Source: Candidatus Zixiibacteriota bacterium (GTDB taxonomy: Bacteria; Zixibacteria; MSB-5A5; GN15; JACZUZ01). From it: a DNA stretch of 64,000 bases. Below are positions 19,852 through 50,580 of the stretch, in pieces; position 1 is the first letter of the stretch; the number at the start of each line of letters is the position of its first letter. Below the pieces are notes generated by a model. It saw nothing but the letters and a program-made list of their open reading frames with translations, was not told where the DNA came from and did no database searches. The stretch is from positions 5,390-69,389 of the forward strand of contig JAJRPJ010000018.1 of assembly GCA_024280835.1 (NCBI GenBank). Direction: 5' to 3'. The position numbers and the translations under genes were made by a program.

Positions 19852-20859
19852 CTATGCGCCTGGCTTGTGGACTGTCCAGATGGAGTCAGTGAAGAAACGC
19901 CGTGAATCGAAAAGCATTTTGTTCACTCGAAAACCAGTTTCGGCAGCAAGAACCTTGACTTCAGACTCAAGATATTTGTAGGAATATTCAGTGTGAATAG
20001 GCTCCCATTCGCGGAAACTAAAAGAACGTCCGATTGTCTCTATATAGACATCCTGATCTTCCATACTGACTAAGAAACTTTCCATCGCGCCATTGAAGAC
20101 ATTATAGGTTCCATAGTGTCGGAACTTATTCAAATCAAATGTTCCACCAAGTTCACGGTTGATCCTGACAAGCAAATTCAAATTGAATTGCGCAGTGACA
20201 CCAGCTACGTCATTATAGGCTAGTAGTAGCGCTTCAATATCTTTCTTCAAATCGAAACCAGTTAGGAGACAATCTTCGTGATTCAATGAGTTCCAAACAT
20301 TGCGCAAGAATGTTCGGGCGCCCGCATGGTTAAAGTTCCCGATGCTTGAGCCAAGGAACAAGACGAAATTGCGTCGTTCATTGCGATTGTTGAGCCATTT
20401 GATACCATTGAAATATTCTGAAACTAGGCCATTGGTCTCTACTTCAGGCATTGTCTCTTTTAGGTCACTGACCAACTCTATCATGGCTCCCTCAGAGATA
20501 TCTATTGGGACGTATTGAAATTCAAGGTCAAGTTCGGTGAACCTCTTCAAGAGTATTTTTGTCTTTTCGCCAATGCCAGCGCCGAGTTCAACCAAATTGA
20601 AAGCTACACCGTTGAATTGTTGGGCGATCTCGTCTGCGTACTTGACCAGAATCTCTCGCTCACAATCTGTCGGATAGTAATCTGGCGACTTAGTGATGGC
20701 AGTAAACAATTCACTTCCAGCGCTATCATACAAATATTTTGATGATAGAGATTTATGAGTTTCAGACAAACCGACTAAGACATCAAGCGCAAAAGCTTGA
20801 TTGGCGTCGAATGAGTCCTCAAAATCTTTTGGGTCTAGTTTCTTATATGTTATAGACAT
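19852..20859 (-). CDS. egtD: L-histidine N-alpha-methyltransferase (ergothioneine biosynthesis)
   Basis: SSKYLYDSAGSELFTAITKSPDYYPTDCEREIL matches the EgtD signature (K.FYD..GS.LF..I...PEYY.TR.E..IL). Length is 335 aa, and it lies directly downstream of the EgtB-like gene. Confidence 0.85.
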   Translation of the reverse strand: MSITYKKLDPKDFEDSFDANQAFALDVLVGLSETHKSLSSKYLYDSAGSELFTAITKSPDYYPTDCEREILVKYADEIAQQFNGVAFNLVELGAGIGEKTKILLKRFTELDLEFQYVPIDISEGAMIELVSDLKETMPEVETNGLVSEYFNGIKWLNNRNERRNFVLFLGSSIGNFNHAGARTFLRNVWNSLNHEDCLLTGFDLKKDIEALLLAYNDVAGVTAQFNLNLLVRINRELGGTFDLNKFRHYGTYNVFNGAMESFLVSMEDQDVYIETIGRSFSFREWEPIHTEYSYKYLESEVKVLAAETGFRVNKMLFDSRRFFTDSIWTVHKPGA

Positions 20860-20993
20860 GTGCCGTTACTTATTCTCTTGAGTGTGATTTGTGAGTTTGG
20901 GCGGGATTTGAGATGACTCAATCAGATGTATATTGTTTTGAAATTTCAGATTGAGCCAAGTTTGAACTGAGCCTTAATTAAATTGAATCTTCC

Positions 20994-22397
20994 TTAAACA
21001 TTGTCTGCCAAGCGAATTCCAGTCATCTGCCAGCGTTTGTCACATTGGAAAAAGCTTCTATATGTTGTGCGCACGTGTGACTTAGGTGTCAGACATGACC
21101 CACCGCGAAGAACCATCTGGTCGGACATAAACTTGCCATTATACTCACCCAATGGTCCAGCTTCTTGCTTGTAACCAGGATATGCTAAGTAAGAACTAGC
21201 AGTCCACTCCCAAACATCACCAAACATTTGACTAAGTGACATATCGTTTTTTCCGCAAACTGGATTATCGGCTGTCGGATGTAAGATGCTTTTTTCAACA
21301 AAATTGCCATCACGTTGGATTTCATCAAGAGTCTCGGCGGCGAATTCCCACTCCATTTCTGTTGGTAGGCGTTTTCCAGCCCAACGGGCGAAAGCCCAGC
21401 TTTCGTAGTAACTAACATGACAGACTGGCTCAGCGAGGTTCAATGGCCGCGTTCCCGAAAGTGTATTGATTGTCCAACCTGATTCTGTCTTTTCCCAATA
21501 CATCGGATGGCGCCATATCTTGCTCGGTACCCTCCCCCAAGCATCGGCAAGCCAGAGACTAGGGTTATCGTATCCGCCATCATTGATAAACTCAAGAAAC
21601 TCCCCACAGGTGACTAGGCGAGGCAATAGCTTGAAGTCCTCAAGATATACTTTGTGACGTGGCGATTCATTGTCGTAGGTAAACTTTGCTCCGCTGGAGT
21701 CTGCGTTATCGGCTCCGACTTCGACTAGGCCGCCTTTGAAGGTCAGATAATGATTACGAAGGAAAGGTGTCTTATCATTTGAAGTTGACGCAACAGGCTC
21801 TAAGTAAGCTGGCTGTAGGGGATTTGAAGCGAAGACATGCTTGATATCACTCAGTAACAATTCTTGATGCTGCTGCTCGTGATTAAAACCAATTTTGAAT
21901 AGAGAATATATTTCGTTCCATGACTTTTCAGCAACGGTTGCAATAAATTTCTCTACTCGCTCATCTATCGCCGCACGGTATTCCATTATTTCTGGAACAG
22001 TTGGACGCGACAATGTTCCACGCAGGGGACGATCCGCCTGTTGGCCAAGCGAATTATAATAAGAATTGAAGATGTAATAATATTTCTCGTTAAAGGGGCG
22101 GTAATTGGGGCTGAACTGCTGGAGTATTACTCGCTCGAAGAACCACGTTACATGCGCCAAGTGCCATTTAGCGGGGCTCGTATCGTCCATTGACTGGACA
22201 ACACAATCCTCTGGTTGCAGGGGCGCGGCCAGCTTCTTGGTTTGCGCCCTGACAGCCTTGAACTCTTCTAATAGTTCTTTGCGGCACTGGTCGATAGATT
22301 CAATTGCTTGCGACATGTCATTTACCTGTTCTGTATACCTGGTTTCCCAGCAATCCTTCTGCTTTTGTATATTGGTAAAATAAATTTCATCAGTCAA
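20994..22397 (-). CDS. egtB: ergothioneine biosynthesis sulfoxide synthase EgtB (DinB_2 + FGE-sulfatase domains)
   Basis: SPAKWHLAHVTWFFERVIL is the DinB-type iron site. GDVWEWTASSYLAYPGYK...VLRGGSCLTPKSHVRTTYRSFF is the FGE-like domain. At 467 aa with no fused methyltransferase domain, it is EgtB rather than OvoA. Confidence 0.85.
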   Translation of the reverse strand: MTDEIYFTNIQKQKDCWETRYTEQVNDMSQAIESIDQCRKELLEEFKAVRAQTKKLAAPLQPEDCVVQSMDDTSPAKWHLAHVTWFFERVILQQFSPNYRPFNEKYYYIFNSYYNSLGQQADRPLRGTLSRPTVPEIMEYRAAIDERVEKFIATVAEKSWNEIYSLFKIGFNHEQQHQELLLSDIKHVFASNPLQPAYLEPVASTSNDKTPFLRNHYLTFKGGLVEVGADNADSSGAKFTYDNESPRHKVYLEDFKLLPRLVTCGEFLEFINDGGYDNPSLWLADAWGRVPSKIWRHPMYWEKTESGWTINTLSGTRPLNLAEPVCHVSYYESWAFARWAGKRLPTEMEWEFAAETLDEIQRDGNFVEKSILHPTADNPVCGKNDMSLSQMFGDVWEWTASSYLAYPGYKQEAGPLGEYNGKFMSDQMVLRGGSCLTPKSHVRTTYRSFFQCDKRWQMTGIRLADNV

Positions 22398-22505
22398 GCG
22401 CTCTCAGACAATCATTCTTCAAAAAATCGTTCCCGCGAAAATAATACTTTGGAAAAGCCAAATGGTGAGCGCTGGCAATCACTTTTGCTTCACAATCTTG
22501 AGAGT

Positions 22506-24020
22506 CTATTGACTGAAAATCGCGCGGCGTAATTGTTTAGCGCTTTCACTGACAGAGCGGTTATCGAGGTCAACGGCCTTGTTTGCTGAGCGCATTTCTT
22601 CAGCGGTAATTTTTCCGATGATGACATTCAGGGCTTCAATCAATCGTTGATTACTCGATGCTCGCGGTGAAAGCAACAGAGTTGCGTCATATGGGGGTAG
22701 GGCCTGCTGTGGATCGGTGAGGGTTACTAAATCAAAGGCGGCGATGCTGCCATCGGTTGAATAGGCGGCGATAACATTGACGGCATCTTCATTTATTGCG
22801 GCATACATTAGGCTGTGATCCATGCTGACTAAGTCAGTAAAATTGAGACGATAGGTATCACGCAACGACACCCATTCTGGTCGGCCAAAGAATTCATAGT
22901 CACTGCCCATTTTCATATTTCGTGAATAGGAGCTCAAATCCGAGACACTTACAATTTTGTTATTCTCAGCGAATTCTCGCGGAATAGCCAAAGCGTATGT
23001 ATTCTCAAAGCCCAAAGCTCCAAGACAAAGGACTTGATGCTGATCCATCAGCCATTTGGTTAGCTCCACGAGTACGGTGTCACCTTTGGGAACGCTTTTT
23101 CTCTGCATGTAGTTGGCCCAAATCGTACCAGAATAGTCTACATAACAATCGACTTCATTATTGGTTAGCGCTTCGAATAAAATCGTTGAGCCCATTCCCG
23201 AGCGAACCTCGATTTCAAAACCAGCGTCGGTCAGAATTTCGCTCATCATTTCAGAGAGTACATATTGTTCGGTGAAAGTTTTGGCGCCAATAACTATACG
23301 CTCTGCGCCAGTGTTGCTATTGTATCGCTCATATAGTGGAGACATCCCCAGCAAAGCCAATAGAAGCAGGCCGACACTGGTGCCGATAGCTAGAGTTTTT
23401 TTTCGTTGGCTGGCTGCGTATTCAATCAGGTGAATAAATTGATCTAGGATAATCGCCAAAGCCGCAGCGCTGGCGCTGCCGACAATCACTGCTGTGTAAT
23501 TTTGTGTTTGCAGGCCACTGAAAATGTAGTTGCCTAAAGAAGTCGCTCCGACAGGTGTCGCCAAGGTTGCTGTGCCGACTATCCAGACTGCAGAAGTGCG
23601 AATTCCTGCTATGATAACTGGCGCGGCAAGTGGTAATTCTACGAGTCGCAGTATTTGCATTGAGGTCATGCCTGACCCACGCGCCGCTTCTGTTAGAGAG
23701 GAATCAATATCAAGAATACCAGTCACTGTGTTTCTAATCATCGGTAGCATACTATAGAGAACTAAAGCTATCAGTGCAGGCAAAGCCCCAATTTGTCCGA
23801 GCAATGGCACCATCAAAGCTAACATGGCAATGCCTGGTATGGTTTGCAGAATGCTGGCGATAGTCATCACTGGCCATTGCAAGGCTTTGACACGTGTAAC
23901 TAGCGCCGCCAGTGGCAAGCAGATGATTATTCCAATCGCTAGCGCTGTTAGTGTCAGTGCGATATGATGCGAGAGGTAGTTTGGTAATAACGCCAACTGT
24001 TCGGCAAGACGTTCGCTCAT
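22506..24020 (-). CDS. ABC transporter, fused permease + OpuAC-type substrate-binding domain (quaternary-amine / EgtU-like architecture)
   Basis: The N-terminal half is a BPD-type permease (ASILQTIPGIAMLALMVPL...). The C-terminal half, RIVIGAKTFTEQYVLSEMMSEIL...DCYVDYSGTIWANYM, resembles OpuBC/OpuCC-type binding domains. Confidence 0.85.
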   Translation of the reverse strand: MSERLAEQLALLPNYLSHHIALTLTALAIGIIICLPLAALVTRVKALQWPVMTIASILQTIPGIAMLALMVPLLGQIGALPALIALVLYSMLPMIRNTVTGILDIDSSLTEAARGSGMTSMQILRLVELPLAAPVIIAGIRTSAVWIVGTATLATPVGATSLGNYIFSGLQTQNYTAVIVGSASAAALAIILDQFIHLIEYAASQRKKTLAIGTSVGLLLLALLGMSPLYERYNSNTGAERIVIGAKTFTEQYVLSEMMSEILTDAGFEIEVRSGMGSTILFEALTNNEVDCYVDYSGTIWANYMQRKSVPKGDTVLVELTKWLMDQHQVLCLGALGFENTYALAIPREFAENNKIVSVSDLSSYSRNMKMGSDYEFFGRPEWVSLRDTYRLNFTDLVSMDHSLMYAAINEDAVNVIAAYSTDGSIAAFDLVTLTDPQQALPPYDATLLLSPRASSNQRLIEALNVIIGKITAEEMRSANKAVDLDNRSVSESAKQLRRAIFSQ

Positions 24021-24802
24021 TGACTATCTGCGCTTTCGGATTGTTGCAGAAGTTTAGTAAGGGCATTCATTTGATTGACAGGAGTCTCAAGGAGGCGCTG
24101 TGCATAGGGATGCCCAGGATTTTGCAAAATATTTGCTGGTGTGTCGAGACGCACTATTTTGCCTTTCTCCATAACTGCGATTCTATCGGCAAGTGTCAGC
24201 GCTTCGCTCATATCGTGCGTCACCAAGATAATTGTCATTGACATTAGCTTGTGAAGTCGAGTTAACTCTTTCTGGAGTCCTGAGCGTGTCAATGGATCCA
24301 ACGCCCCGAATGGTTCATCCATGAGCATCACCGATGGAGCAACCGCCAAAGCCCGAGCGACACCAATTCTCTGCTGCTGTCCACCAGAGAGTTCACGCGG
24401 AAACCTATTGCGCAGCCCATCAGGGTTTAGCTCAACCATTTGCAGAAGCTCTGTCACCCGTGAGTGCATTCTCTCAGCGCTCCAGCCCAACAAACGTGGA
24501 GTAATCGATATATTCTCAGCGACTGTCATATGTGGAAACAAACCGATTTCCTGAAAGACATAGCCGATACGTCGCCTGAGAGTCACAGGATCAAGAGCGA
24601 GTATGTTTTCGCCATCGATTTCGATTGACCCTGCGCTAGGCTCAATCAACCGATTAATCATTTTCAAGGTTGTGGTTTTACCACAACCAGATTCACCAAC
24701 AAGAGCCAGTAGTTCACCACTCTTGATTTCAAGATCGATACTGTCGACAGCGAATGTTGCCTCGTCATCATATGATTTGGATATGTTCTTTAGATTGATC
24801 AT
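24017..24802 (-). CDS. ABC transporter ATP-binding protein (short OpuCA/ProV-like, no CBS tail)
   Basis: Walker A GESGCGKTT, signature LSGGQQQRIGVARAL, Walker B LLMDEPFGALD. A 4-nt overlap (24017-24020) links it to the permease gene. Confidence 0.9.
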   Translation of the reverse strand: MINLKNISKSYDDEATFAVDSIDLEIKSGELLALVGESGCGKTTTLKMINRLIEPSAGSIEIDGENILALDPVTLRRRIGYVFQEIGLFPHMTVAENISITPRLLGWSAERMHSRVTELLQMVELNPDGLRNRFPRELSGGQQQRIGVARALAVAPSVMLMDEPFGALDPLTRSGLQKELTRLHKLMSMTIILVTHDMSEALTLADRIAVMEKGKIVRLDTPANILQNPGHPYAQRLLETPVNQMNALTKLLQQSESADSQ

Positions 24803-34063: not shown

Positions 34064-34972
34064 TTATCCGCGTAAGATCATATTGACTATGTCTTTACGG
34101 TGCAAGACACCTATCGGCTTATTGTCCGCATCGACAACAAACACACGTCTCAAATCGCTTTTTATCATAGCCGCAGCGACAGTCACAATATTGTCGGTTG
34201 GAGTCACAATTTCATGATCGACTTGAAAAATCTGCGAAATAGGGATTTTGTCAGCCTTTTTGAGCAGCTCTTCAAAGGGCTCTTCTGGTAAATCGTGATC
34301 TGGAGCAGTGGCCAGAGATTTATAATCGGGTAAAGCGGCGGTCAGCAAATCTCTGTCAGAAATCTGACCAATAAGTTTTCCCGCATCATCGACAACTGGA
34401 AGAGCCGAGAGTCGATAACGAAAGAGATCATTGGCCGCCTGTCTGAGCGATAGGGATTCAGCGATTGTAATGGGGTTGTACCTCATCAAATCCGCAACAG
34501 TAATCTCCCTATTGACCATAACTCCAGACTGCCAAATGACATCCAACATTTCATAGGGAGTGCGAGCTTCCTTGAGTTGATTGATATTCTCTTTTGAACG
34601 CGCAAAGTTTGCCAATGCTGACAAGGTCTGTAAATAGAGACGTGAAATATTTGAGGGAGTCAATAACAAGCAGACAACTTCAAGCTGGCTACCATCGTGG
34701 CACTTTTCAACCCCTCTATGTGAGACCCCCATTGCGAGATACATTTTTGAAACGGCCTCTGTACGCGCATGAGGAAAGGCAAAATTGTGCGCATAAGAAG
34801 TATCCTCTATCATTTCGCGTTCAAGAACCTTCTTCATAACTTCATCGGTGTCGATGGTTGGATCGTGATCAGATATTTTCTCCAAGAGCTGATTTATCGC
34901 CTCGACTTTTCCACAACCAGTCAAATCTGGAATCAAAAACTCTGGATTCAGAAGTGTCGCTAGGCGCATCAT
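34064..34972 (-). CDS. PTS EIIA(Ntr)-like domain fused to a CBS pair
   Basis: The N-terminal LLNPEFLIPDL...FAFPHARTEAV is PTS_EIIA_2-like with an active-site His context. The C-terminal LMRYNPITI...LSALPVVDDAGKLIGQISDRDLL and RRVFVVDADNKPIGVLHRKDIV are CBS motifs. Confidence 0.7.
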   Translation of the reverse strand: MMRLATLLNPEFLIPDLTGCGKVEAINQLLEKISDHDPTIDTDEVMKKVLEREMIEDTSYAHNFAFPHARTEAVSKMYLAMGVSHRGVEKCHDGSQLEVVCLLLTPSNISRLYLQTLSALANFARSKENINQLKEARTPYEMLDVIWQSGVMVNREITVADLMRYNPITIAESLSLRQAANDLFRYRLSALPVVDDAGKLIGQISDRDLLTAALPDYKSLATAPDHDLPEEPFEELLKKADKIPISQIFQVDHEIVTPTDNIVTVAAAMIKSDLRRVFVVDADNKPIGVLHRKDIVNMILRG

Positions 34973-35691
34973 AATGTCGACTCCTTTACACCATCACCAC
35001 CATTGTCTGTATTGGCTGATTCACTGGACACTTCTGATTGTAAGTCGGAACCAGATTTCGAGTCAACTGTAGCCAGTAAGCTACCATTCAATGACTGGGG
35101 GGATGCAATACCACCCGAAACTAGAAATCTGAATCCTTCCTCAATTGTCATATCTAACAATACAACATCTTCCGCCGGAGCCAAAATCACCATACCAGAA
35201 ACAGGAGTGGGAGTCGAAGGAACAAACAAACAGACCATTGGGCTTGAGTTTCCATCAATTACTAGCTCTGGTCGTTTCACAGAAAATGCTAACGCGTAAA
35301 CGCCACGTCTTGGATACTCCACCAAGACCACTTGCTTGAAGGCTTGCTTGTTTGGTAAACTGACCCCTTCGACTAGCTGCTTTGCGGCGCCATAGATAGT
35401 CCTCACACCAGGGAAATTATTGAGGAATGCTTCTCCCCAGCGAAGTAATCTTGAGCCAACGAGATTCCGAGTCAGAATACCAACTAGTAGTATTAGCAGG
35501 CCTGTGGTTATCAGACCCAGGCCAGGGATACTGTAGCCGACAAGGTGTGTTACCAAGGGGGCTAGGATACCGTCGATTGATTCGAAGAGAAATTTTAGTA
35601 GAATGAAAGTAAGGATTAGTGGCGCAACCACCAACGCCCCAGAAATGAAGTTCCGTTTGAGGACGACTCTAATTCGGTAAAATAATGGCAC
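34969..35691 (-). CDS. DUF502 family membrane protein
   Basis: LKRNFISGALVVAPLILTFILLKFLFESIDGIL...PGLGLITTGLLILLVGIL...VPSTPTPVSG fits DUF502. A 4-nt overlap links it to the downstream EIIA-CBS gene. Confidence 0.7.
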   Translation of the reverse strand: MPLFYRIRVVLKRNFISGALVVAPLILTFILLKFLFESIDGILAPLVTHLVGYSIPGLGLITTGLLILLVGILTRNLVGSRLLRWGEAFLNNFPGVRTIYGAAKQLVEGVSLPNKQAFKQVVLVEYPRRGVYALAFSVKRPELVIDGNSSPMVCLFVPSTPTPVSGMVILAPAEDVVLLDMTIEEGFRFLVSGGIASPQSLNGSLLATVDSKSGSDLQSEVSSESANTDNGGDGVKESTL

Positions 35692-35838
35692 AAGCTCTCC
35701 AGATAACTAATGCAACACGAAATGAATACTTAGTTAGATATGCGTAACAACAATTCATCCAACGGTCGACTTAGCGGCGACTGGATGACACCTAACATTA
35801 TTCAAAAATTCCTGAGCCTCTGTCAAGCGCTAGATATT

Positions 35839-37446
35839 CTATAACCCAAAAACGCTGACAGCCTGCACAGTAAGAACCTCAACAACAGATGGAGCAACTC
35901 CAGCATAGATTAGGATTGCGCAGGTTATCGCCGCCGCTAGTCTCATTGACATGGTTAAACCTGGCTCAGAATGTTTCTCTGCAAATTCAGTTTTTTGGAA
36001 TAAGCTCCAAACCAACCGCCCGATTGAGAACAGTATTACTAATGAAACCACAACTATCAGTGAAAACGCCCACCACTGTTGAGAGTCAAGCGCAGATTCA
36101 GCCAGTCCCAGTCTGGCGACGAATCCGCCAGTAAATGGCGCCGCCGCCAGTGAAGCCAAACCCAAAGTCAAAACCCCAGCTATCAACGGAGAGCGACGAG
36201 CGAGACCTCTAAGGTCTGATAGCTCAACCTCGGCGATTCGTCCACTTGACTGCCAATCTCCAAAGCCAACTGGCGCCATCCTCTCTATCAACGGCAAAAG
36301 CATGGACAGTGACAAAACAGTAAACATTGTTTGTATCAATGCTCCCGAGAGACCCGCTGAATTGGCGCTGATAACCCCAATCATAACAAACCCACCTTGA
36401 GCCAAAGCAATCCATAGCAACATTCGCCGCACAGAGCGTTCGCGCAAAATTGCGGCTACAGTTAGGAACATTGAAATTGTGAGTATGATTGTTAGCGCAG
36501 GGGCCCAATCCAAGGGGGCCATGACATCGCCAGAAAATGCGATCAAGACATTGTCGAAGACTCTCAAGAAAGTAATCGACCCAGTCAATATGCCTGTGAG
36601 TATCGCCAGCGGTAGAGCGCCACTCCTTCTGGAGGCATGAAACTCTCCCATCCATAAGTGAAATGGCGCGAGGCCCATTTTTGCCGCTAGCCCAGCGCTC
36701 AGTAGAGCCACAGCCAAGATCATTGAAGGGCCGATTTTCTTGTAGGTCAAAAAGACGATTGAAATGTTCACACGTAGTTGGAGCAAATTTGTTTCGCCAC
36801 CAATGCCATAGAGGACTGCCAATCCAAAGAGAAAAATCAAGGAACTGAAAATTCCATAGCCGAAGAAACGCAAAAATTTATCTCGAAGTCCATTGGCGAT
36901 TTCCAAATTGGCGCCTGTATCGCCGTGCGATGCTTCTGTTTCTGCTATGTGAGTGATTCCTCTGAAATAGAGATACAGTGGAATCGCGCACAATTCCACT
37001 CCTATAAACAAAGTCACTAGGTCATAGGCCTCCGCTAAGAAGAAAACTCCACCGACGCTTAGAAGTAGGATTGGATAAATTAGTTCTAAAACGCGCTGTT
37101 GCAAGCGAGGGGTTTTGACATTGTCCGCAGAGGCGGGCAAGAAAATCGCTAAGAGCGTAAAACCACTAACTGCCACTAGTCGGAAAAATCTGCTAAACGG
37201 ATCATGCAACAAAATGGCGCCCATTTGCGATGAGAACTGTGTCTGCAATTCAATCCAGCCTGCTATTAACAAAATAGTGATGGTCCACATGCGTGAAATG
37301 TGCGAACGTTTCGAATCACCCACAAATCGCATCAATACGAAGCTCAGGCCCGCTCCACAAAAAAGAAACAATGTCGGAGCCATGACACTCAAACTCGCAA
37401 GCGATGGCCAGACCAATAAACTTGATGTTGCGTCCACAGGGTTCAT
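35839..37446 (-). CDS. NuoN/NuoM/NuoL-family antiporter-like subunit (Proton_antipo_M type)
   Basis: FIGVELCAIPLYLYF (TM5 Glu context) and AAKMGLAPFHLWMGEF (the K...PFH.W motif) are typical of complex I subunit N/2. The protein is polytopic and 535 aa long. Confidence 0.7.
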   Translation of the reverse strand: MNPVDATSSLLVWPSLASLSVMAPTLFLFCGAGLSFVLMRFVGDSKRSHISRMWTITILLIAGWIELQTQFSSQMGAILLHDPFSRFFRLVAVSGFTLLAIFLPASADNVKTPRLQQRVLELIYPILLLSVGGVFFLAEAYDLVTLFIGVELCAIPLYLYFRGITHIAETEASHGDTGANLEIANGLRDKFLRFFGYGIFSSLIFLFGLAVLYGIGGETNLLQLRVNISIVFLTYKKIGPSMILAVALLSAGLAAKMGLAPFHLWMGEFHASRRSGALPLAILTGILTGSITFLRVFDNVLIAFSGDVMAPLDWAPALTIILTISMFLTVAAILRERSVRRMLLWIALAQGGFVMIGVISANSAGLSGALIQTMFTVLSLSMLLPLIERMAPVGFGDWQSSGRIAEVELSDLRGLARRSPLIAGVLTLGLASLAAAPFTGGFVARLGLAESALDSQQWWAFSLIVVVSLVILFSIGRLVWSLFQKTEFAEKHSEPGLTMSMRLAAAITCAILIYAGVAPSVVEVLTVQAVSVFGL

Positions 37447-38042
37447 ATTTTACTCACCGACGCTTGCATTGTCGTTTGAAGGTTGGCCGTTGATTGTTTT
37501 TTGAGTTGTTCCTCTCGTCTTCGGCGATACAAAATGTGAGTCAATATCCCAACACCAACAACAAACGCCAACGCCGCTACCATAGAAAGTTTCATCAATA
37601 CGTAACCCACAACAAAGACCATCATCACCGAGACTTGAAATGCAAAACTATCAGTGAATGACACGACGCCGACAAAACCTTCACCTCGTCGCCGAGTATG
37701 TCCGATTTGCGTTGTAACCTTGGCGGAATTACGATTCAAATTCTCTGAGTCAGTTTCTTCTCTCTTTGAAGCTTCCACTATTCTCTGACTGTCCTGACGG
37801 ACAAATTGAGCTGCGAAAACACCATAGGCTATCGACAATACCAGAACAACCAGTGCAAAGAAGTATCCGCTCGTTTCAGTTGGCTGTATTAAACGATTGA
37901 ATGTCACAAAAGCCAGAGCTATCGCTCCAGCCGAAATAGACAGAGACATCAGGGCGCCAGCAAAAGAACGCCTAGTGAGGGCCCCATAGACACCAATAGA
38001 AAAGAGCACTCCAGAGAGAGCCATGTAACGCACGATCTCCAT
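37443..38042 (-). CDS. NuoK-like small membrane subunit with a ~100-aa C-terminal extension
   Basis: The first ~95 aa align by eye to NuoK (LSGVLFSIGVYGALTRRSFAGALMSLSISAGAIALAFV versus E. coli [36 protein letters not shown]). A charged linker and two extra hydrophobic helices follow. Confidence 0.5.
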   Translation of the reverse strand: MEIVRYMALSGVLFSIGVYGALTRRSFAGALMSLSISAGAIALAFVTFNRLIQPTETSGYFFALVVLVLSIAYGVFAAQFVRQDSQRIVEASKREETDSENLNRNSAKVTTQIGHTRRRGEGFVGVVSFTDSFAFQVSVMMVFVVGYVLMKLSMVAALAFVVGVGILTHILYRRRREEQLKKQSTANLQTTMQASVSKI

Positions 38043-38575
38043 TAGCCTTGGCGCTCCTTTTCAACTACAGAGCTACTTTCTAGTATAGAAACTTTCGAAC
38101 GCCTAACTTGAAAAGCAAAAAGCGCCACCATTGACAAGAGCGCCAAGCAACCAATCAAGGCTGGGAAATAATGAGCGCCGAGTTTTTCAAGAAGAGCTAT
38201 GTCGATTGATGCTGGAGCTTCACCTGTGTGCGAACTCCAAATGCTATAAATCCAGACAGGCGTAACTGTCATCAAGAAACACAGTAAGACAAACACAGCT
38301 ACAGTCTGATTTGGACTTGTCAGCATGCTCACCTTGTCATCAGCCCGCTCCCCACTACGTTTGAATTTCTTTTGATAGATTACTAGCGCAATCATTCCGA
38401 TAACACCTAGCGCCACTGTTAATGAAATAATCGAAAGCCAGTAGAACATTCCACCCAAAGCCAAACAAAACAGAGAAAATGCAAAGACAGCGCCTTTCGG
38501 AGATTTGATGGTCACCGCACTTAGCGCTGCGCTTACAACTAGAGTTGCAAGAAGATAGAACACCATGTCTGTCAT
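38042..38575 (-). CDS. NuoJ-like membrane subunit (divergent)
   Basis: Size (177 aa), helix layout, N-terminus MVFYLLATLVVSAALSAVTIKSP, and position directly upstream of the NuoK-like gene. Similarity is weak. Confidence 0.45.
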   Translation of the reverse strand: MTDMVFYLLATLVVSAALSAVTIKSPKGAVFAFSLFCLALGGMFYWLSIISLTVALGVIGMIALVIYQKKFKRSGERADDKVSMLTSPNQTVAVFVLLCFLMTVTPVWIYSIWSSHTGEAPASIDIALLEKLGAHYFPALIGCLALLSMVALFAFQVRRSKVSILESSSVVEKERQG

Positions 38576-38803: not shown

Positions 38804-39193
38804 TTATCCACTAATTGCAACTGCATCAATTTCGACAAGAACGTCCTTAGGCAAACGTGCCACTTCAACAGTCGCTCGTGCGGGGTATGGCTCTACAAAA
38901 AACGATCCATAGACCTCATTGACAGCGGCAAAATCATCCATTGATTTGACATAAATAGTTGTCTTGACCACATCAGTTAGACTTGCGCCTGCAGCGACTA
39001 TCACGGCCGAAAGGTTCTTGAGAACTTGCTTGGTTTGTTCAGTCGCATTATCGCCGATAATTTTTCCAGTGGCTGGGTCAAGTGGTATTTGGCCTGAACA
39101 AAACAGCATTTGTCCTCCAGCGCTTTGTACCGCCTGTGAATAGGGACCAATTGCCGATGGGGCTTCGTTTGTCTTTATGATTGTCTTGGACAT
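38804..39193 (-). CDS. ridA: RidA family reactive-intermediate/imine deaminase
   Basis: APSAIGPYSQAV...LFCSGQIPLDPATG...QTKQVLKNL...VVKTTIYVKSMDDFAAVNEVY...PARATVEVARLPKDVLVEIDAVA is near-textbook YjgF/RidA. Confidence 0.9.
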   Translation of the reverse strand: MSKTIIKTNEAPSAIGPYSQAVQSAGGQMLFCSGQIPLDPATGKIIGDNATEQTKQVLKNLSAVIVAAGASLTDVVKTTIYVKSMDDFAAVNEVYGSFFVEPYPARATVEVARLPKDVLVEIDAVAISG

Positions 39194-40777: not shown

Positions 40778-41407
40778 TTATGGCTGATAGTTCTTGATAC
40801 GCATTAGTACTGTCTCTAAGGATTCATTGATGCTGCCAAGCGCTTTGGCGTAGCGTCTCAACAGTTCGCTATATTGCCAGCGCATTTTGAAAGCTTGGTC
40901 TGGGAAATCAAATAGTCCAAGCAGTGTGGCTTTGCAAATCTCATCGATGTATTTGATAACATAGTAAGGATAGTCTGGGACTAGATCGTCACGTGTCTCT
41001 CCGCGTCCGAGTCTCTCGCGGTAGACTTCAATTTTTTCAAGAGTAACAGTTCCAAAACACCAAGGTGTCATGATTACACCGAAGTTTGAATTGTCTGTGT
41101 AGAAGTTTAGCGCAGCCTTGCGAACAATATTAAGGATTATCATTCTAGCCCGAAAATAGGCTAGCGACTCTGCGTTTTCTGTCGGAGTTAATTCAATTTT
41201 CTGCTCTACAACACTCATTTGTTCAGAACAATTTTCATAGACTTTTTCGAGGAAACAGTAATAGTCATCAAAATAGACTTTCACGTCCTCTGAGAGAGTT
41301 TGGACATAGAATCCACCCTCATCTTCACGTACACGCGGTTCGACAACCCGAGTTAGCCTTTCGTTGGTGAATCCGCGCTGATGTCTTCCGTCAATCATAG
41401 TAGTCAT
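40778..41407 (-). CDS. hypothetical cytoplasmic protein (209 aa), no recognisable family
   Basis: A clean ORF bounded by terminator hairpins on both sides, with no TM segment or signal peptide. I recognise no motifs. Confidence 0.5.
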   Translation of the reverse strand: MTTMIDGRHQRGFTNERLTRVVEPRVREDEGGFYVQTLSEDVKVYFDDYYCFLEKVYENCSEQMSVVEQKIELTPTENAESLAYFRARMIILNIVRKAALNFYTDNSNFGVIMTPWCFGTVTLEKIEVYRERLGRGETRDDLVPDYPYYVIKYIDEICKATLLGLFDFPDQAFKMRWQYSELLRRYAKALGSINESLETVLMRIKNYQP

Positions 41408-46748: not shown

Positions 46749-48155
46749 ATGAAATTACTTAGTCAGAGCAATAACGGAAACGGTCCTATGAGATTCTTCT
46801 CAGGCAAGCGAGCGCTAGCGGTGTTTGGGGGCTTGATATTCTATCTGACTTTCTCGACTATGGAGGCCTACGGGTCTGGGGGCGAACAGGCCGAACAGGT
46901 AACCCAAACTCTACTGGGGTTGGTAGTCATCCTTCTGGCCGCCAAGCTGGGTGGTGATTTGTTTGAACGCCTGAATCAACCTGCTGTCCTTGGCGAACTA
47001 ATTATTGGAATTTTTCTTGGCAATTTATCTTTGCTTGGTATTGATGGTGTTGAGCCGCTCAAACACTCTTTGCCTCTGGAAGTCCTTGCAGAAATCGGTA
47101 TTATTATACTGCTTTTCCAGGTTGGACTTGAATCATCTATCAAAGAAATGCTCTCAGTCGGCGCGACATCCTTCATGGTTGCCTTAGCTGGTGTCCTAGC
47201 GCCATTTTTCCTCGGCTGGGGAGTCTCGGTTTACTTCTACCCTGAAAGTGATTTGCTGATTCACCTCTTTATCGGCGCAACATTGACAGCAACATCAGTC
47301 GGAATAACCGCGCGTGTACTCAAAGATTTACACAAGAGCACCACCAAAGAAGCCAAAGTAATTTTGGGCGCCGCTGTTATCGATGACATCATGGGACTCA
47401 TAATTCTTGCAGTCATACAGGGCGTTATCCTAGCCAAAAACCAAGGCGGCGAATTGGCCTCTTCGGAAATCTTGATTATTTGTCTCAAGGCAGTCGGGTT
47501 TATCGTCGGCGCTCTGGCCATCGGCCACTATCTCTCACCAAAGATATTTTTTGTAGTCAAGGGCATGAGAGTCTCTGGCGTTCTGCTCTCAGTAGCTTTG
47601 TTCATTTGTTTCGGCTTGGCGTGGGTAGCGGCCATAATAGGTCTGGCTCCGATTGTCGGAGCGTTTGCAGCTGGACTGATTCTCGATGAAGTTCATTATC
47701 AAGTCCATCCAACTTTCAAAGACTTCTCTATAGACAAACTGATAGACCCGATTGCAGTTTTTCTTGTGCCGATATTCTTTGTGCGGATGGGCATGATGGT
47801 CGATGTCACACATTTCGGCAAGATGGAGGTCTTGGCTTTCGCTGGTGCTTTGACTCTTGTCGCTTTCATCGGTAAACAAGTCTGTGGGGTGGTTATTCGA
47901 GATAAGTCAATTAGCAAAATGTCTGTCGGTTTGGGCATGGTTCCCAGAGGCGAAGTCGGGCTCATATTCGCTGGAATCGGAGCCACCTTGGTTCTTGCGG
48001 GTGAAAGTGTGATTTCCCCTGAAGTCTATTCGGCAGTTGTGATTATGGTTATGGTCACAACCTTGGTCACGCCCCCAGCCTTGAAATGGAGCTTGATGAA
48101 ATCCGAAGACAAAAAAGTAACCACCGAAACTCAGACTGAGACACCTTCAAGCTAA
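46749..48155 (+). CDS. cation:proton antiporter (CPA2 / Kef-type Na_H_Exchanger family)
   Basis: LLAAKLGGDLFERLNQPAVLGELIIGIFLG is the hallmark N-terminal motif, and the protein is polytopic throughout. Confidence 0.85.
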   Translation: MKLLSQSNNGNGPMRFFSGKRALAVFGGLIFYLTFSTMEAYGSGGEQAEQVTQTLLGLVVILLAAKLGGDLFERLNQPAVLGELIIGIFLGNLSLLGIDGVEPLKHSLPLEVLAEIGIIILLFQVGLESSIKEMLSVGATSFMVALAGVLAPFFLGWGVSVYFYPESDLLIHLFIGATLTATSVGITARVLKDLHKSTTKEAKVILGAAVIDDIMGLIILAVIQGVILAKNQGGELASSEILIICLKAVGFIVGALAIGHYLSPKIFFVVKGMRVSGVLLSVALFICFGLAWVAAIIGLAPIVGAFAAGLILDEVHYQVHPTFKDFSIDKLIDPIAVFLVPIFFVRMGMMVDVTHFGKMEVLAFAGALTLVAFIGKQVCGVVIRDKSISKMSVGLGMVPRGEVGLIFAGIGATLVLAGESVISPEVYSAVVIMVMVTTLVTPPALKWSLMKSEDKKVTTETQTETPSS

Positions 48156-48332: not shown

Positions 48333-48409
<77 letters not shown>

Positions 48410-48774: not shown

Positions 48775-49899
48775 ATGGATACCGAACGCCCAAACCCACT
48801 ACAAACCTCTGTCGATTCCCAAGGGAAGTTGCAACTCATCAAGAAGCTTTTCTATCTCTCGGGAGTTTTGTATCTATTTATTCTGGCTATTACGCTCTTA
48901 GGCGCCTCGTTCAAACTGATGGGCGCCGATGTTGTCCATTCTCTTTTCAGCGCTGCTGAAAACCCGATGGTTGGACTAGCAATTGGAATCTTCGCTACCG
49001 CAGTTATTCAGTCCTCATCGACCACTACGGCAATAGTAGTTGGTTTGGTTGGCTCTGGGGGGTTAGGCTTTGTTACAGCAATCCCAATTATCATGGGAGC
49101 TAACGCTGGTACTTCGGTTACTAACACAATTGTCTCACTGGCAAGTATCAATCGCGGAGAGGATTTCAAGAGAGCGTTCGCTGGCTCAACGGTTCATGAT
49201 TTCTTTAATTTTTGCTCCATCACCTTGCTCCTTCCACTGGAAATTCAATTCGGCCTCATTTCTAAATCCGCGAAATTCATTGAACCCTTTGTGGCTGGTT
49301 CAGGTGGTCTGTCTTTCAAATCTCCATTGAAGATGATTACAAAGCCAGTTGTCGCACAGGTTATTGACGTCATCGGAAACACGGGCTGGCTGGCGGCCTT
49401 GATAGCGCTTGTGCTTCTATTCTTTTCATTACAATATCTGACCAAGATTATGCGTTCAATGATTATGTCCAATATTGAACAATTCTTTGAGCGCGTTATC
49501 TTCCGCAATGCCGCGCTGGGTTTTACACTCGGTATCATCCTGACAGTCCTAGTGCAGTCATCATCAATCACAACATCCTTGGTCGTGCCTTTGTTAGCCG
49601 CTGGAATCATTACGCTCCAACAAATCTATCCCTATGTCTTGGGAGCTAATATAGGAACAACCGTAACTGCCTTTCTAGCGGCTATAGCCACTGGTTCTCA
49701 TGCGGCCGTTGGTGTGGCCTTTGCGCATTTCCTATTTAATGTCTATGGCACAGCTGTTTTTTGGCCCTTGAAGCGAATACCTATTTTCTTAGCCGAACGA
49801 CTAGCGGAATACTCCCAGAAGTCACGAGTTATTCCGATACTATATATTTTGATTCTATTTTTTGTTCTTCCTGGAACATTAATTTCTATGACGAGGTAA
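48775..49899 (+). CDS. Na/Pi cotransporter family protein (NptA/YjbB-like, transporter domain only)
   Basis: The duplicated signature AVIQSSSTTTAIVVGLV and LVQSSSITTSLVVPLL is typical of Na_Pi_cotrans. Confidence 0.85.
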   Translation: MDTERPNPLQTSVDSQGKLQLIKKLFYLSGVLYLFILAITLLGASFKLMGADVVHSLFSAAENPMVGLAIGIFATAVIQSSSTTTAIVVGLVGSGGLGFVTAIPIIMGANAGTSVTNTIVSLASINRGEDFKRAFAGSTVHDFFNFCSITLLLPLEIQFGLISKSAKFIEPFVAGSGGLSFKSPLKMITKPVVAQVIDVIGNTGWLAALIALVLLFFSLQYLTKIMRSMIMSNIEQFFERVIFRNAALGFTLGIILTVLVQSSSITTSLVVPLLAAGIITLQQIYPYVLGANIGTTVTAFLAAIATGSHAAVGVAFAHFLFNVYGTAVFWPLKRIPIFLAERLAEYSQKSRVIPILYILILFFVLPGTLISMTR

Positions 49900-49908
49900 C
49901 AAGAGATC

Positions 49909-50580
49909 ATGCTGGAAAAATATACTGAGCTGTTCCATAAACATAACCTACTTGATGAAGCTGTTGGCTTGACCCTTAAGATGCTGGAGATTGATGCCAA
50001 GATGTATCATATTGCGCAAGAAAGTTTGCGAGATTCAGACACAGCAGAACTGCAGGACGATCTCAAAAAAATGGATCGGCGAGTCAATAAGCATCTCAGA
50101 GATGTTCGCCGCAAAGTCTTAACTCATCTAACTGTCGCTGGTACGGCCAATTTGGTGCCTGGGCTAGTCCTGGCCTCAATCGTGATTGATGTTGAGCGTA
50201 TTGGGGACTATGCCAAGAACATAGTTGGCTTGGCGCGCCAACATCCCAAACGTCTAAAGGGACAAAAATACGAAAGTGACTTGAAGAAAATCGAAGATTT
50301 CATATCTCCGAACTTTGAGCGTGTGGCGCTGACACTTTCCGAGAAGGATATTTCCATTGGGCGGGAAGTTATGAAGGCCGAGGTAGAGATCGGAAACCTT
50401 TGTGACAAGATTGTCGACCAATTGTTGACTGATCCGTCAGAAGATTTATCAAGAACAAATGTTGTCGCTATCGCTTTGTATGTGCGCTTCCTAAAACGCA
50501 TAAACTCGCATTTGACAAATGTTGCCAGCGCTATTGTTAACCCTTTTCCGAGAATTAGTTTTAGAGAAAAAGAGAAATAG
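49909..50580 (+). CDS. PhoU-domain protein associated with the Na/Pi cotransporter
   Basis: VIDVERIGDYAKNIVGLA and FLKRINSHLTNVASAI are PhoU-like repeat helices. The gene starts 9 nt after the cotransporter gene. Confidence 0.8.
   Translation: MLEKYTELFHKHNLLDEAVGLTLKMLEIDAKMYHIAQESLRDSDTAELQDDLKKMDRRVNKHLRDVRRKVLTHLTVAGTANLVPGLVLASIVIDVERIGDYAKNIVGLARQHPKRLKGQKYESDLKKIEDFISPNFERVALTLSEKDISIGREVMKAEVEIGNLCDKIVDQLLTDPSEDLSRTNVVAIALYVRFLKRINSHLTNVASAIVNPFPRISFREKEK

Follow-up and report, generated by a model that had tools for sequence, protein, structure and literature searches.

Loss of proton-path residues in a J-K-N gene trio, a likely remnant of the Zixibacterial 11-subunit complex I operon

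NuoJ, NuoK and NuoN are neighbors in the membrane arm of complex I. We have analyzed three consecutive genes whose products resemble these subunits (the trio; J, K and N hereafter) in a 64,000-nucleotide (nt) stretch of DNA from Candidatus Zixiibacteriota (assembly GCA_024280835.1, contig JAJRPJ010000018.1, positions 5,390 to 69,389 of the forward strand), to which we refer as the window. The closest described counterparts are NuoJ, NuoK and NuoN (ND6, ND4L and ND2) of the 11-subunit, NDH-1-type complex I of other Zixibacteria, which the trio resembles in descent, chromosomal position, gene order (J-K-...-N), profile-level folds and the indels of N. The trio differs from that enzyme in lacking NuoD, NuoH, NuoI, NuoL, NuoM and the pumping residues and, in the clade to which the window belongs (clade A), in having a K that is longer by 117 residues. 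An 11-subunit complex I has been reported for Zixibacteria RBG-1, as have two complex I sets (PMC3903129).

The Mrp core (MrpD, MrpC and the NuoJ-like part of MrpA/MrpB) and the MbhH/G/D module likewise combine an antiporter-like, a NuoK-like and a NuoJ-like component without a quinone module. However, the charged residues that are kept in Mrp and Mbh are missing in the trio, and trio N is closest to NuoN, not to MrpD. The DabB/DabA and NdhD3/F3-CupA systems have an antiporter-like subunit outside a full complex I and are thus a precedent for re-use of the fold. In contrast to the trio, these systems have a carbonic-anhydrase-like partner, keep the ion-path residues and have no J or K partners. 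Decay of ndh or nuo genes is known from reduced genomes, for example as plastid ndh loss in some plants. The trio is similarly reductive, but it differs in that a defined subset of genes is intact, appears to be under purifying selection, was apparently reached repeatedly and is free of pseudogenes. Among the neighbors of the trio, Pfam scans identified no MrpA, MrpB, MrpE, MrpF or MrpG gene and no DabA- or CupA-type partner. Membership in the Mrp, Mbh, Hyf or Dab systems was ruled out by gene content and best-model scores.

The three genes are located as follows (aa, amino acids):

38042..38575, minus strand: NuoJ-like gene, 177 aa, five predicted helices
37443..38042, minus strand: K-like gene, 199 aa
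35839..37446, minus strand: NuoN-like gene, 535 aa

They are coupled by a 1-nt overlap at the J/K junction (TAATG) and a 4-nt overlap at the K/N junction (ATGA), as reported in a preliminary description made from the DNA letters alone. The likeness to complex I subunits J, K and N that it proposed holds as well, through PF00420 and PF00361 and, for J, a profile comparison with hhalign. Pfam scans of the open reading frames (ORFs) between 19.8 and 56.5 kb of the window identified no nuo genes other than the trio, and a tblastn comparison of NuoA-N with the entire 64 kb gave matches at the K and N loci alone. The earlier remark that no nuoA-I, nuoL or nuoM gene adjoins the trio therefore extends across the window, which contains no split operon.

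From comparison with related loci, we conclude that the trio is very likely an in-situ remnant of a Zixibacterial 11-subunit (NuoEFG-less) complex I operon, whose proton-path residues were lost and whose remaining genes were retained. Loss of nuoL-M and of the genes upstream of nuoJ would have left J-K-N in place. The survivors would have shed both glutamates of NuoK, the tyrosine region in transmembrane helix (TM) 3 of NuoJ and, in NuoN, the TM8 lysine and the PD.Y.G.PTP and AYSS motifs, with the TM12 lysine changed to arginine.

Full operons and trios at one chromosomal site

A word-indexed search for relatives returned 5 K-like, 6 J-like and 9 N-like proteins; after the N-like relatives, the next matches are ordinary NuoN proteins, a steep fall to 28% identity or less. 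More distant members came to light when all 1.84 billion representatives were searched exhaustively with a profile, and the trio-type N family then amounted to 11 clusters, every named member of which is from candidate division Zixibacteria. A scan of a genome collection gave three loci among 185,579 species, two of them labelled Zixibacteriota and one Ignavibacteriales; these labels are those of the depositors of the metagenome-assembled genomes. Assemblies that carry trios include GCA_024280775.1, GCA_964516945.1 and GCA_025450795.1. The flanking genes of interest in the window are:

38804..39193, minus strand: RidA gene, 228 nt upstream of J (PF01042, 148 bits)
34969..35691, minus strand: DUF502 membrane protein gene, 147 nt downstream of N (PF04367, 100 bits)
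34064..34972, minus strand: EIIA(type 2)-CBS gene (PF00359 and PF00571), overlapping the DUF502 gene by 4 nt

Every trio locus has the order RidA-J-K-N-DUF502-EIIA/CBS with secDF further on, even when the genes upstream of RidA differ; recurrence of the trio with the same neighbors in other genomes, a point raised in the preliminary description, is thereby established. In one of these loci (L001), no other nuo genes were found within 10 kb on each side of the trio.

We scanned metagenome contigs with the EIIA-CBS protein, which gave 80 loci, and annotated them with hidden Markov models (HMMs) derived from the trio loci. For 56 of these loci, at least 400 nt of sequence upstream of DUF502/EIIA-CBS are available, and all 56 have an N-type ORF immediately ahead of DUF502/EIIA-CBS. 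By gene content, 30 loci are full (J-K-L-M-N), 10 are trios, including that of the window, and 8 are cut off at contig ends. In L021, Pfam identified NuoH, NuoI, NuoJ (135 bits), NuoK (96 bits), NuoL, NuoM and NuoN (246 bits), followed by DUF502 and EIIA-CBS. In L082, NuoD directly precedes NuoH, and this operon is therefore of the 11-subunit type without NuoEFG, in agreement with the complex I reported for RBG-1 (PMC3903129). Since secD is also found downstream in the full-type loci, 4-7 kb further on, full operons and trios occupy the same chromosomal site, and the trio is not a paralogous copy. In the trio loci, nuoL-M and the genes upstream of nuoJ (nuoD, nuoH and nuoI where seen) are absent, such that RidA adjoins J and K adjoins N. 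Gene loss and residue loss coincide: J, K and N of the full type all have the catalytic residues, and those of the trios lack them. The suggestion that the trio is something other than a fragment of respiratory complex I is thus incorrect as regards descent, given the full operons of L021 and L082 at the same spot.

Several lines of evidence indicate that reduction to J-K-N occurred at least twice. A 10-residue insertion after TM12 of N (D..-YHWLYWL) is shared by the trios of a second clade (clade B), L014 and L050 with the full operons L035, L075, L044 and L053. The K N-terminus MFYYLSLAA is common to the clade-B trios (L013, L045 and L070) and full operon L075, with L044 and L037 one residue off. 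The window's clade and the other group of full operons (L021 and L033) have neither feature. In a neighbor-joining tree of DUF502 plus EIIA-CBS (511 columns, 200 bootstraps), trio monophyly received 0% support, and the split that joins clade A with one full-type group (F1) and clade B with the other (F2) received 100%. Because lost genes cannot return in place, these relationships require the operon to have shrunk separately on the two sides of the split. The evolution of complex I is usually told as a gain of modules; here the reverse would apply, with an 11-subunit enzyme cut down at least two times to J-K-N.

Residues lost and retained in K, J and N

K matches PF00420 with 38.8 bits (cut-off 26.1) over residues 6-77 alone and scores under the cut-off of all NCBIfam NuoK equivalog models (best 43 versus 57). 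It is composed of two parts:

37797..38042, minus strand: residues 1-82 of K, the NuoK-homologous three-helix part (PF00420 and alignments)
37443..37796, minus strand: clade-specific addition to K (alignments and hydropathy)

The positions of the two conserved NuoK glutamates were located by aligning the K-like family profile to solved NdhE/NuoK chains (residues 6-80) and by MAFFT alignment with canonical and full-type NuoK, E. coli NuoK included. The TM2 column is occupied by Ser35 (codon 37938-37940) and the TM3 column by Tyr73 (codon 37824-37826), and the initial by-eye placement of these columns on SLSIS and LSIAYG was right. Both glutamates are missing from all trio-type K proteins, in which the TM2 site is Ser, Gly, Val, Phe or Gln and the TM3 site is Tyr or Gln. 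Every aligned full-type K has both (SLELM and AAAEA).

The 117-residue addition consists of a charged linker (residues 83-120) and a hydrophobic stretch (126-173) of about two helices with the motif SFAFQVS..VF.VGY.LM.L. The length of 199 aa, the linker and the extra helices noted in the preliminary description are therefore real features, and they are conserved in clade A; canonical NuoK and clade-B K (98-104 aa; L013, L045 and L070) do not have the addition. In clade A, the two extra helices may shield surfaces bared by the loss of neighboring subunits. An origin of the extension as a fused fragment of a lost neighbor was considered and rejected, as an HMM of the extension gave nothing significant against 546 ORFs of full-type loci (best E ∼0.5, 5 bits); three of the best non-significant matches fall at residues ∼505-534 of NuoL. 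The AlphaFold2 model of K (predicted local distance difference test (pLDDT) 53.5, predicted template modelling score 0.22, from an alignment of 5-6 sequences) is too poor for arguments about fold or packing. The K of L014 (L014:9495-9998) and the similar proteins of L015 and L043 are 167 aa long and have a C-terminal extension of their own with two hydrophobic segments. No relationship of this extension to that of clade A was detectable, and K may have grown longer here on a second, separate occasion once the operon had been reduced.

J has no match in Pfam or NCBIfam, and one member of its family has a precomputed PF00499 match. In hhalign, the J-like family matches four canonical NuoJ proteins with 95.8% probability over TM1-3 (58 columns), and the best match of its profile among PDB sequences is MbhD (E=0.003). 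The trio-J profile scores 36-62 bits against the NuoJ ORF of the full-type operons, an ORF that is PF00499-positive (127-135 bits in the two loci scanned). Judging from the hhalign match and the location of J at the place of PF00499-positive NuoJ in related operons, J is most likely a NuoJ homologue. Its TM3 reads TVALGVI---GMIAL, with a 3-residue deletion and Gly60 at the column of the canonical tyrosine (Tyr59 of E. coli). The canonical TM3 motif AQ..(I/V)YxGA is degenerate here, and all aligned full-type J proteins have AQVLIYVGA. The AlphaFold2 model of J is of low confidence (pLDDT 59, from an alignment of 5-6 sequences); its Foldseek matches are nearly all NuoJ/ND6, and they are weak (E ≥0.013, template modelling scores of 0.3-0.43).

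N scores 87 bits against PF00361, above the cut-off. Its best NCBIfam model is NuoN (TIGR01770, 143 bits versus a cut-off of 333), and all NuoN equivalogs are far under their cut-offs. NuoN models score higher than MrpD models, and the best solved relatives are NuoN chains. A full-type Zixibacterial N scores 175 bits against N of the window, compared to 102 bits for an unrelated canonical N. The residues of N were mapped by alignment to solved NuoN chains and by a column table of 60 sequences. The TM5 glutamate is present as Glu151 (36994-36996) within GVEL, and the TM7 lysine as Lys256 (36679-36681) within an intact K..PFH.W (Lys256, His263 and Trp265); both motifs had been recognized in the initial reading. 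What had been overlooked are the losses in the same protein: the TM8 lysine is replaced by Ile286 (36589-36591) and the TM12 lysine by Arg445 (36112-36114), GEFHASRRSG stands where PD.Y.G.PTP is expected, and LWIA where AYSS is expected.

The equivalent positions of E. coli NuoN, as given by mutagenic primers (PMC13073174), are E133 (LGI-E-LIS), K217 (GF-K-LSLVP), K247 (TAS-K-IAIF) and K395 (FIG-K-FYV). K247A and K395A nearly abolish complex I activity, compared to mild effects of E133A and K217A (PMC13073174). Given these mutant effects and the presence of Ile286 and Arg445, N keeps the dispensable pair and is without the essential pair. All 30 full-type N proteins have the TM5 glutamate, the TM7 lysine, the TM8 lysine (GSKAA), AYSS and the TM12 lysine. 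No trio-type N has the TM8 lysine or AYSS; the TM8 site is Ile, Leu, Val, Ala or Thr, and clade-B N still has the TM12 lysine. A conservation split identified 28 columns that are invariant in full-type and canonical NuoN and unconserved in trios. Lacking the E-channel carboxylates and the two essential NuoN lysines, the trio would be unable to stand in for J, K and N in a complex I that pumps protons.

Two indels are common to full-type and trio N and missing from other NuoN: extra residues ahead of TM7, and an insertion of 6 residues in the loop that joins TM8 and TM9. The latter region contains a motif that has so far been seen in Zixibacteria only:

36499..36558, minus strand: loop motif of N, residues 297-316, FDNVLIAFSGDVMAPLDWAP (from alignments)

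In this motif, N.L.AF....M.P.DW, residues Leu301, Phe304, Met309, Pro311 and Asp313 are held in both full-type and trio N, and not in the other NuoN compared. Residues 298-311 include two acidic side chains and are free of Lys and Arg, and by the positive-inside pattern the loop would face the outside of the membrane. No catalytic role is known for the insertion (L..F....M.P.DW). The trios may be viewed as a natural deletion experiment, in which the 28 freed columns of N, the glutamate pair of K and the TM3 region of J would mark what the pump needs. The few positions still held, among them the TM5 Glu, the TM7 Lys and the loop seen in this phylum alone, would mark what is needed for folding, assembly or another role.

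One further locus, L050, has an N-type gene (L050:163-1647) that is more degenerate than the trio forms, with the TM5 Glu changed to Asn, the TM7 Lys to Val and PFH gone. The ORF is intact and lies upstream of DUF502; the contig stops 160 nt upstream of it.

Constraint on the trio and its possible role

None of the trio loci examined has a disrupted J, K or N ORF, at divergences down to ∼25-40% identity. For the trio pair L002/L005 (synonymous divergence (dS) ∼0.35-0.39), the ratio of nonsynonymous to synonymous substitution rates (dN/dS) is 0.11 for J, 0.15 for K and 0.12 for N, with 0.03 for SecD and 0.04 for EIIA-CBS. The pair L045/L070 gave 0.30 for J, 0.25 for K and 0.18 for N, and the full operons 0.08-0.10, 0.02-0.06 and 0.04-0.12, respectively. 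These estimates show that the trio is under purifying selection at the codon level, 2-10 times weaker than in the full operons and most relaxed on K (5-10 fold).

Given their adjacency in the membrane arm, the J, K and N proteins most likely still form one membrane subcomplex, which would be non-pumping and kept for a pump-independent role. We tentatively consider that J-K-N serves as a membrane platform or scaffold for the always-adjacent DUF502/EIIA-CBS pair, a possibility that we rate below even. A docking or scaffolding role is weakly favored because the link to DUF502/EIIA-CBS is unbroken and the Zixibacterial loop has outlasted the catalytic sites. A more specific version, somewhat more doubtful still, is that J-K-N is re-used as a non-redox complex with DUF502 and an EIIA(PTS-Ntr-like)-CBS sensor, in continuation of an old side function of the 11-subunit complex I exerted through the N loop. 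Such a side function would explain why the same three genes survived whenever the enzyme was lost. If this proved true, the trio would be the first case of a module from complex I being retained for a task other than ion pumping, and DUF502 would gain its first functional lead. At present there is a hint of a pump-independent J-K-N function that is genomically linked to the uncharacterized, highly conserved DUF502 and EIIA-CBS. Our literature search found nothing on an orphan nuoJKN set or on the function of DUF502.

Several points weigh against the trio as an operon remnant with a retained role. As to protein production and assembly, J, K and N are known here from their genes alone. The proposed scaffold role is drawn from adjacency and a conserved loop, and the adjacency was inherited from the full operon and may be history only. 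A second complex I elsewhere in the genome, as in RBG-1 (PMC3903129), could still use J, K and N. The AlphaFold2 models are too poor for a test of packing. With dS saturated for most pairs, the dN/dS estimates are limited to a few close ones. The full operon is seen from nuoD on, with the nuoA-C end and any preceding RidA lying beyond the contigs seen. Finally, the case for independent reductions is built from a two-gene neighbor-joining tree and indels, not from a genome phylogeny.

An alternative role is that of a stand-alone ion transporter. J-K-N would then be a minimal unit of the Mrp or antiporter kind, carrying H+, Na+ or some other ion along a re-lined polar path (Ser, Tyr or Gln in K, Arg in TM12 of N) and is perhaps gated by EIIA-CBS. 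The antiporter-like fold is retained together with the TM5 Glu and TM7 Lys, purifying selection persists, the former glutamate sites of K are conserved polar residues (Ser35/Tyr73 in clade A, Gln/Gln in L014), and transporters are nearby in some loci (an Na/H exchanger in the window, Na_Ca_ex in L014). However, the residues lost, the TM8 and TM12 lysines of N and both glutamates of K, are those required for ion transfer in every studied member of the family. Their replacements vary by lineage, which suggests relaxed constraint rather than a redesigned site, and the 28 otherwise NuoN-invariant columns are unconserved in the trios. We consider this role improbable; in particular, the working antiporter-like module envisaged in the preliminary description is unlikely, as the proton-carrying residues of the family have been lost.

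Equally unlikely, in our estimate, is that the three genes are non-functional leftovers, ORFs that persist through co-transcription with, or signals for, essential downstream genes, and on which selection just avoids toxic misfolding. The trio evolves faster than every neighbor (35-41% identity for the trio proteins versus 58-76% for the flanking proteins, relative to L004), its dN/dS is raised 2-10 fold over that of the full operons, and it has fallen far in family scores, with no Pfam match for J, 39 versus 96 bits for K and 87 versus 246 bits for N. The yet more degenerate N of L050 also fits such decay. In contrast, the ORFs are uninterrupted in all trio loci examined, with dN/dS of 0.11-0.30, and L, M and the genes upstream of J are gone, hence deletion was possible, and J, K and N were spared at least two times. 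The conserved K extension of clade A is moreover a gain, not decay.

The least probable alternative, to which we give very little weight, is a split complex I, in which J, K and N would still work together with NuoA-I, NuoL and NuoM encoded elsewhere: further nuo genes are possible in this genome, given the two complex I sets of RBG-1 (PMC3903129) and a nuo search that covered the 64-kb window, but no other nuo genes occur in those 64 kb or within 10 kb on each side in L001, the residues on which activity depends are gone, K, in full operons the most conserved subunit, is 5-10 fold less constrained, and a second operon would normally carry its own J, K and N.

For annotation, the trio genes should not be taken to indicate complex I when the metabolism of metagenome-assembled Zixibacteria genomes is reconstructed.

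Flanking genes and other features of the window

The neighbors of the trio are those listed in the preliminary description, with Pfam assignments of RidA, HD_5/HD (its HD-GYP gene), DUF502 and PTS_EIIA_2 plus CBS; the gene of the HD_5/HD protein lies beyond RidA on the upstream side. Among the 56 informative loci, DUF502 follows the nuoN-type gene in 54, and the remaining two (L075 and L082) show no DUF502 ORF in the stretch from N to EIIA-CBS. Otherwise DUF502 and EIIA-CBS are always paired, with a 4-nt overlap or a short gap. EIIA-CBS is the most conserved gene of the block. Its FAFPHART motif is invariant in six aligned loci and contains a histidine, His68, at the position expected for the phospho-acceptor.

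A scan for promoters and terminators gave counts at chance level overall. One sigma-70-like site (35797-35826, minus strand; TTGACA, an 18-nt spacer and AATAAT, 11 of 12 matches) is located 13 nt past the stop codon of N and could drive DUF502-EIIA/CBS apart from the trio, although the consensus may not fit this phylum. Rfam gave no match near the trio, and a tRNA-Met (CAT) at 48333-48409 (plus strand) is the sole Rfam or ARAGORN match in the window.

Ion transporters recur around the block, which may be a chance coincidence. The window encodes a Na+/H+ exchanger (46749-48155, plus strand) and a Na/Pi cotransporter with PhoU (48775-50580, plus strand). The interval from EIIA-CBS to secD holds the Na/Pi-PhoU pair in L004 and a Na/Ca exchanger (Na_Ca_ex) in L014.

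Further from the trio, an ergothioneine-type pair of EgtD-like (PF10017) and EgtB-like (FGE-sulfatase plus DinB_2) genes is found at 19852-24802 (minus strand), adjoining an OpuA-type betaine ABC transporter composed of a fused permease/binding protein and an ATPase. A 209-aa protein without a Pfam match (40778-41407, minus strand) is among the best conserved of the region, with identities of 85% to its counterpart in L001 and 68% to that in L009. In several Zixibacteria loci, L013 of clade B among them, its gene accompanies that of the HD-domain protein encoded upstream of RidA.

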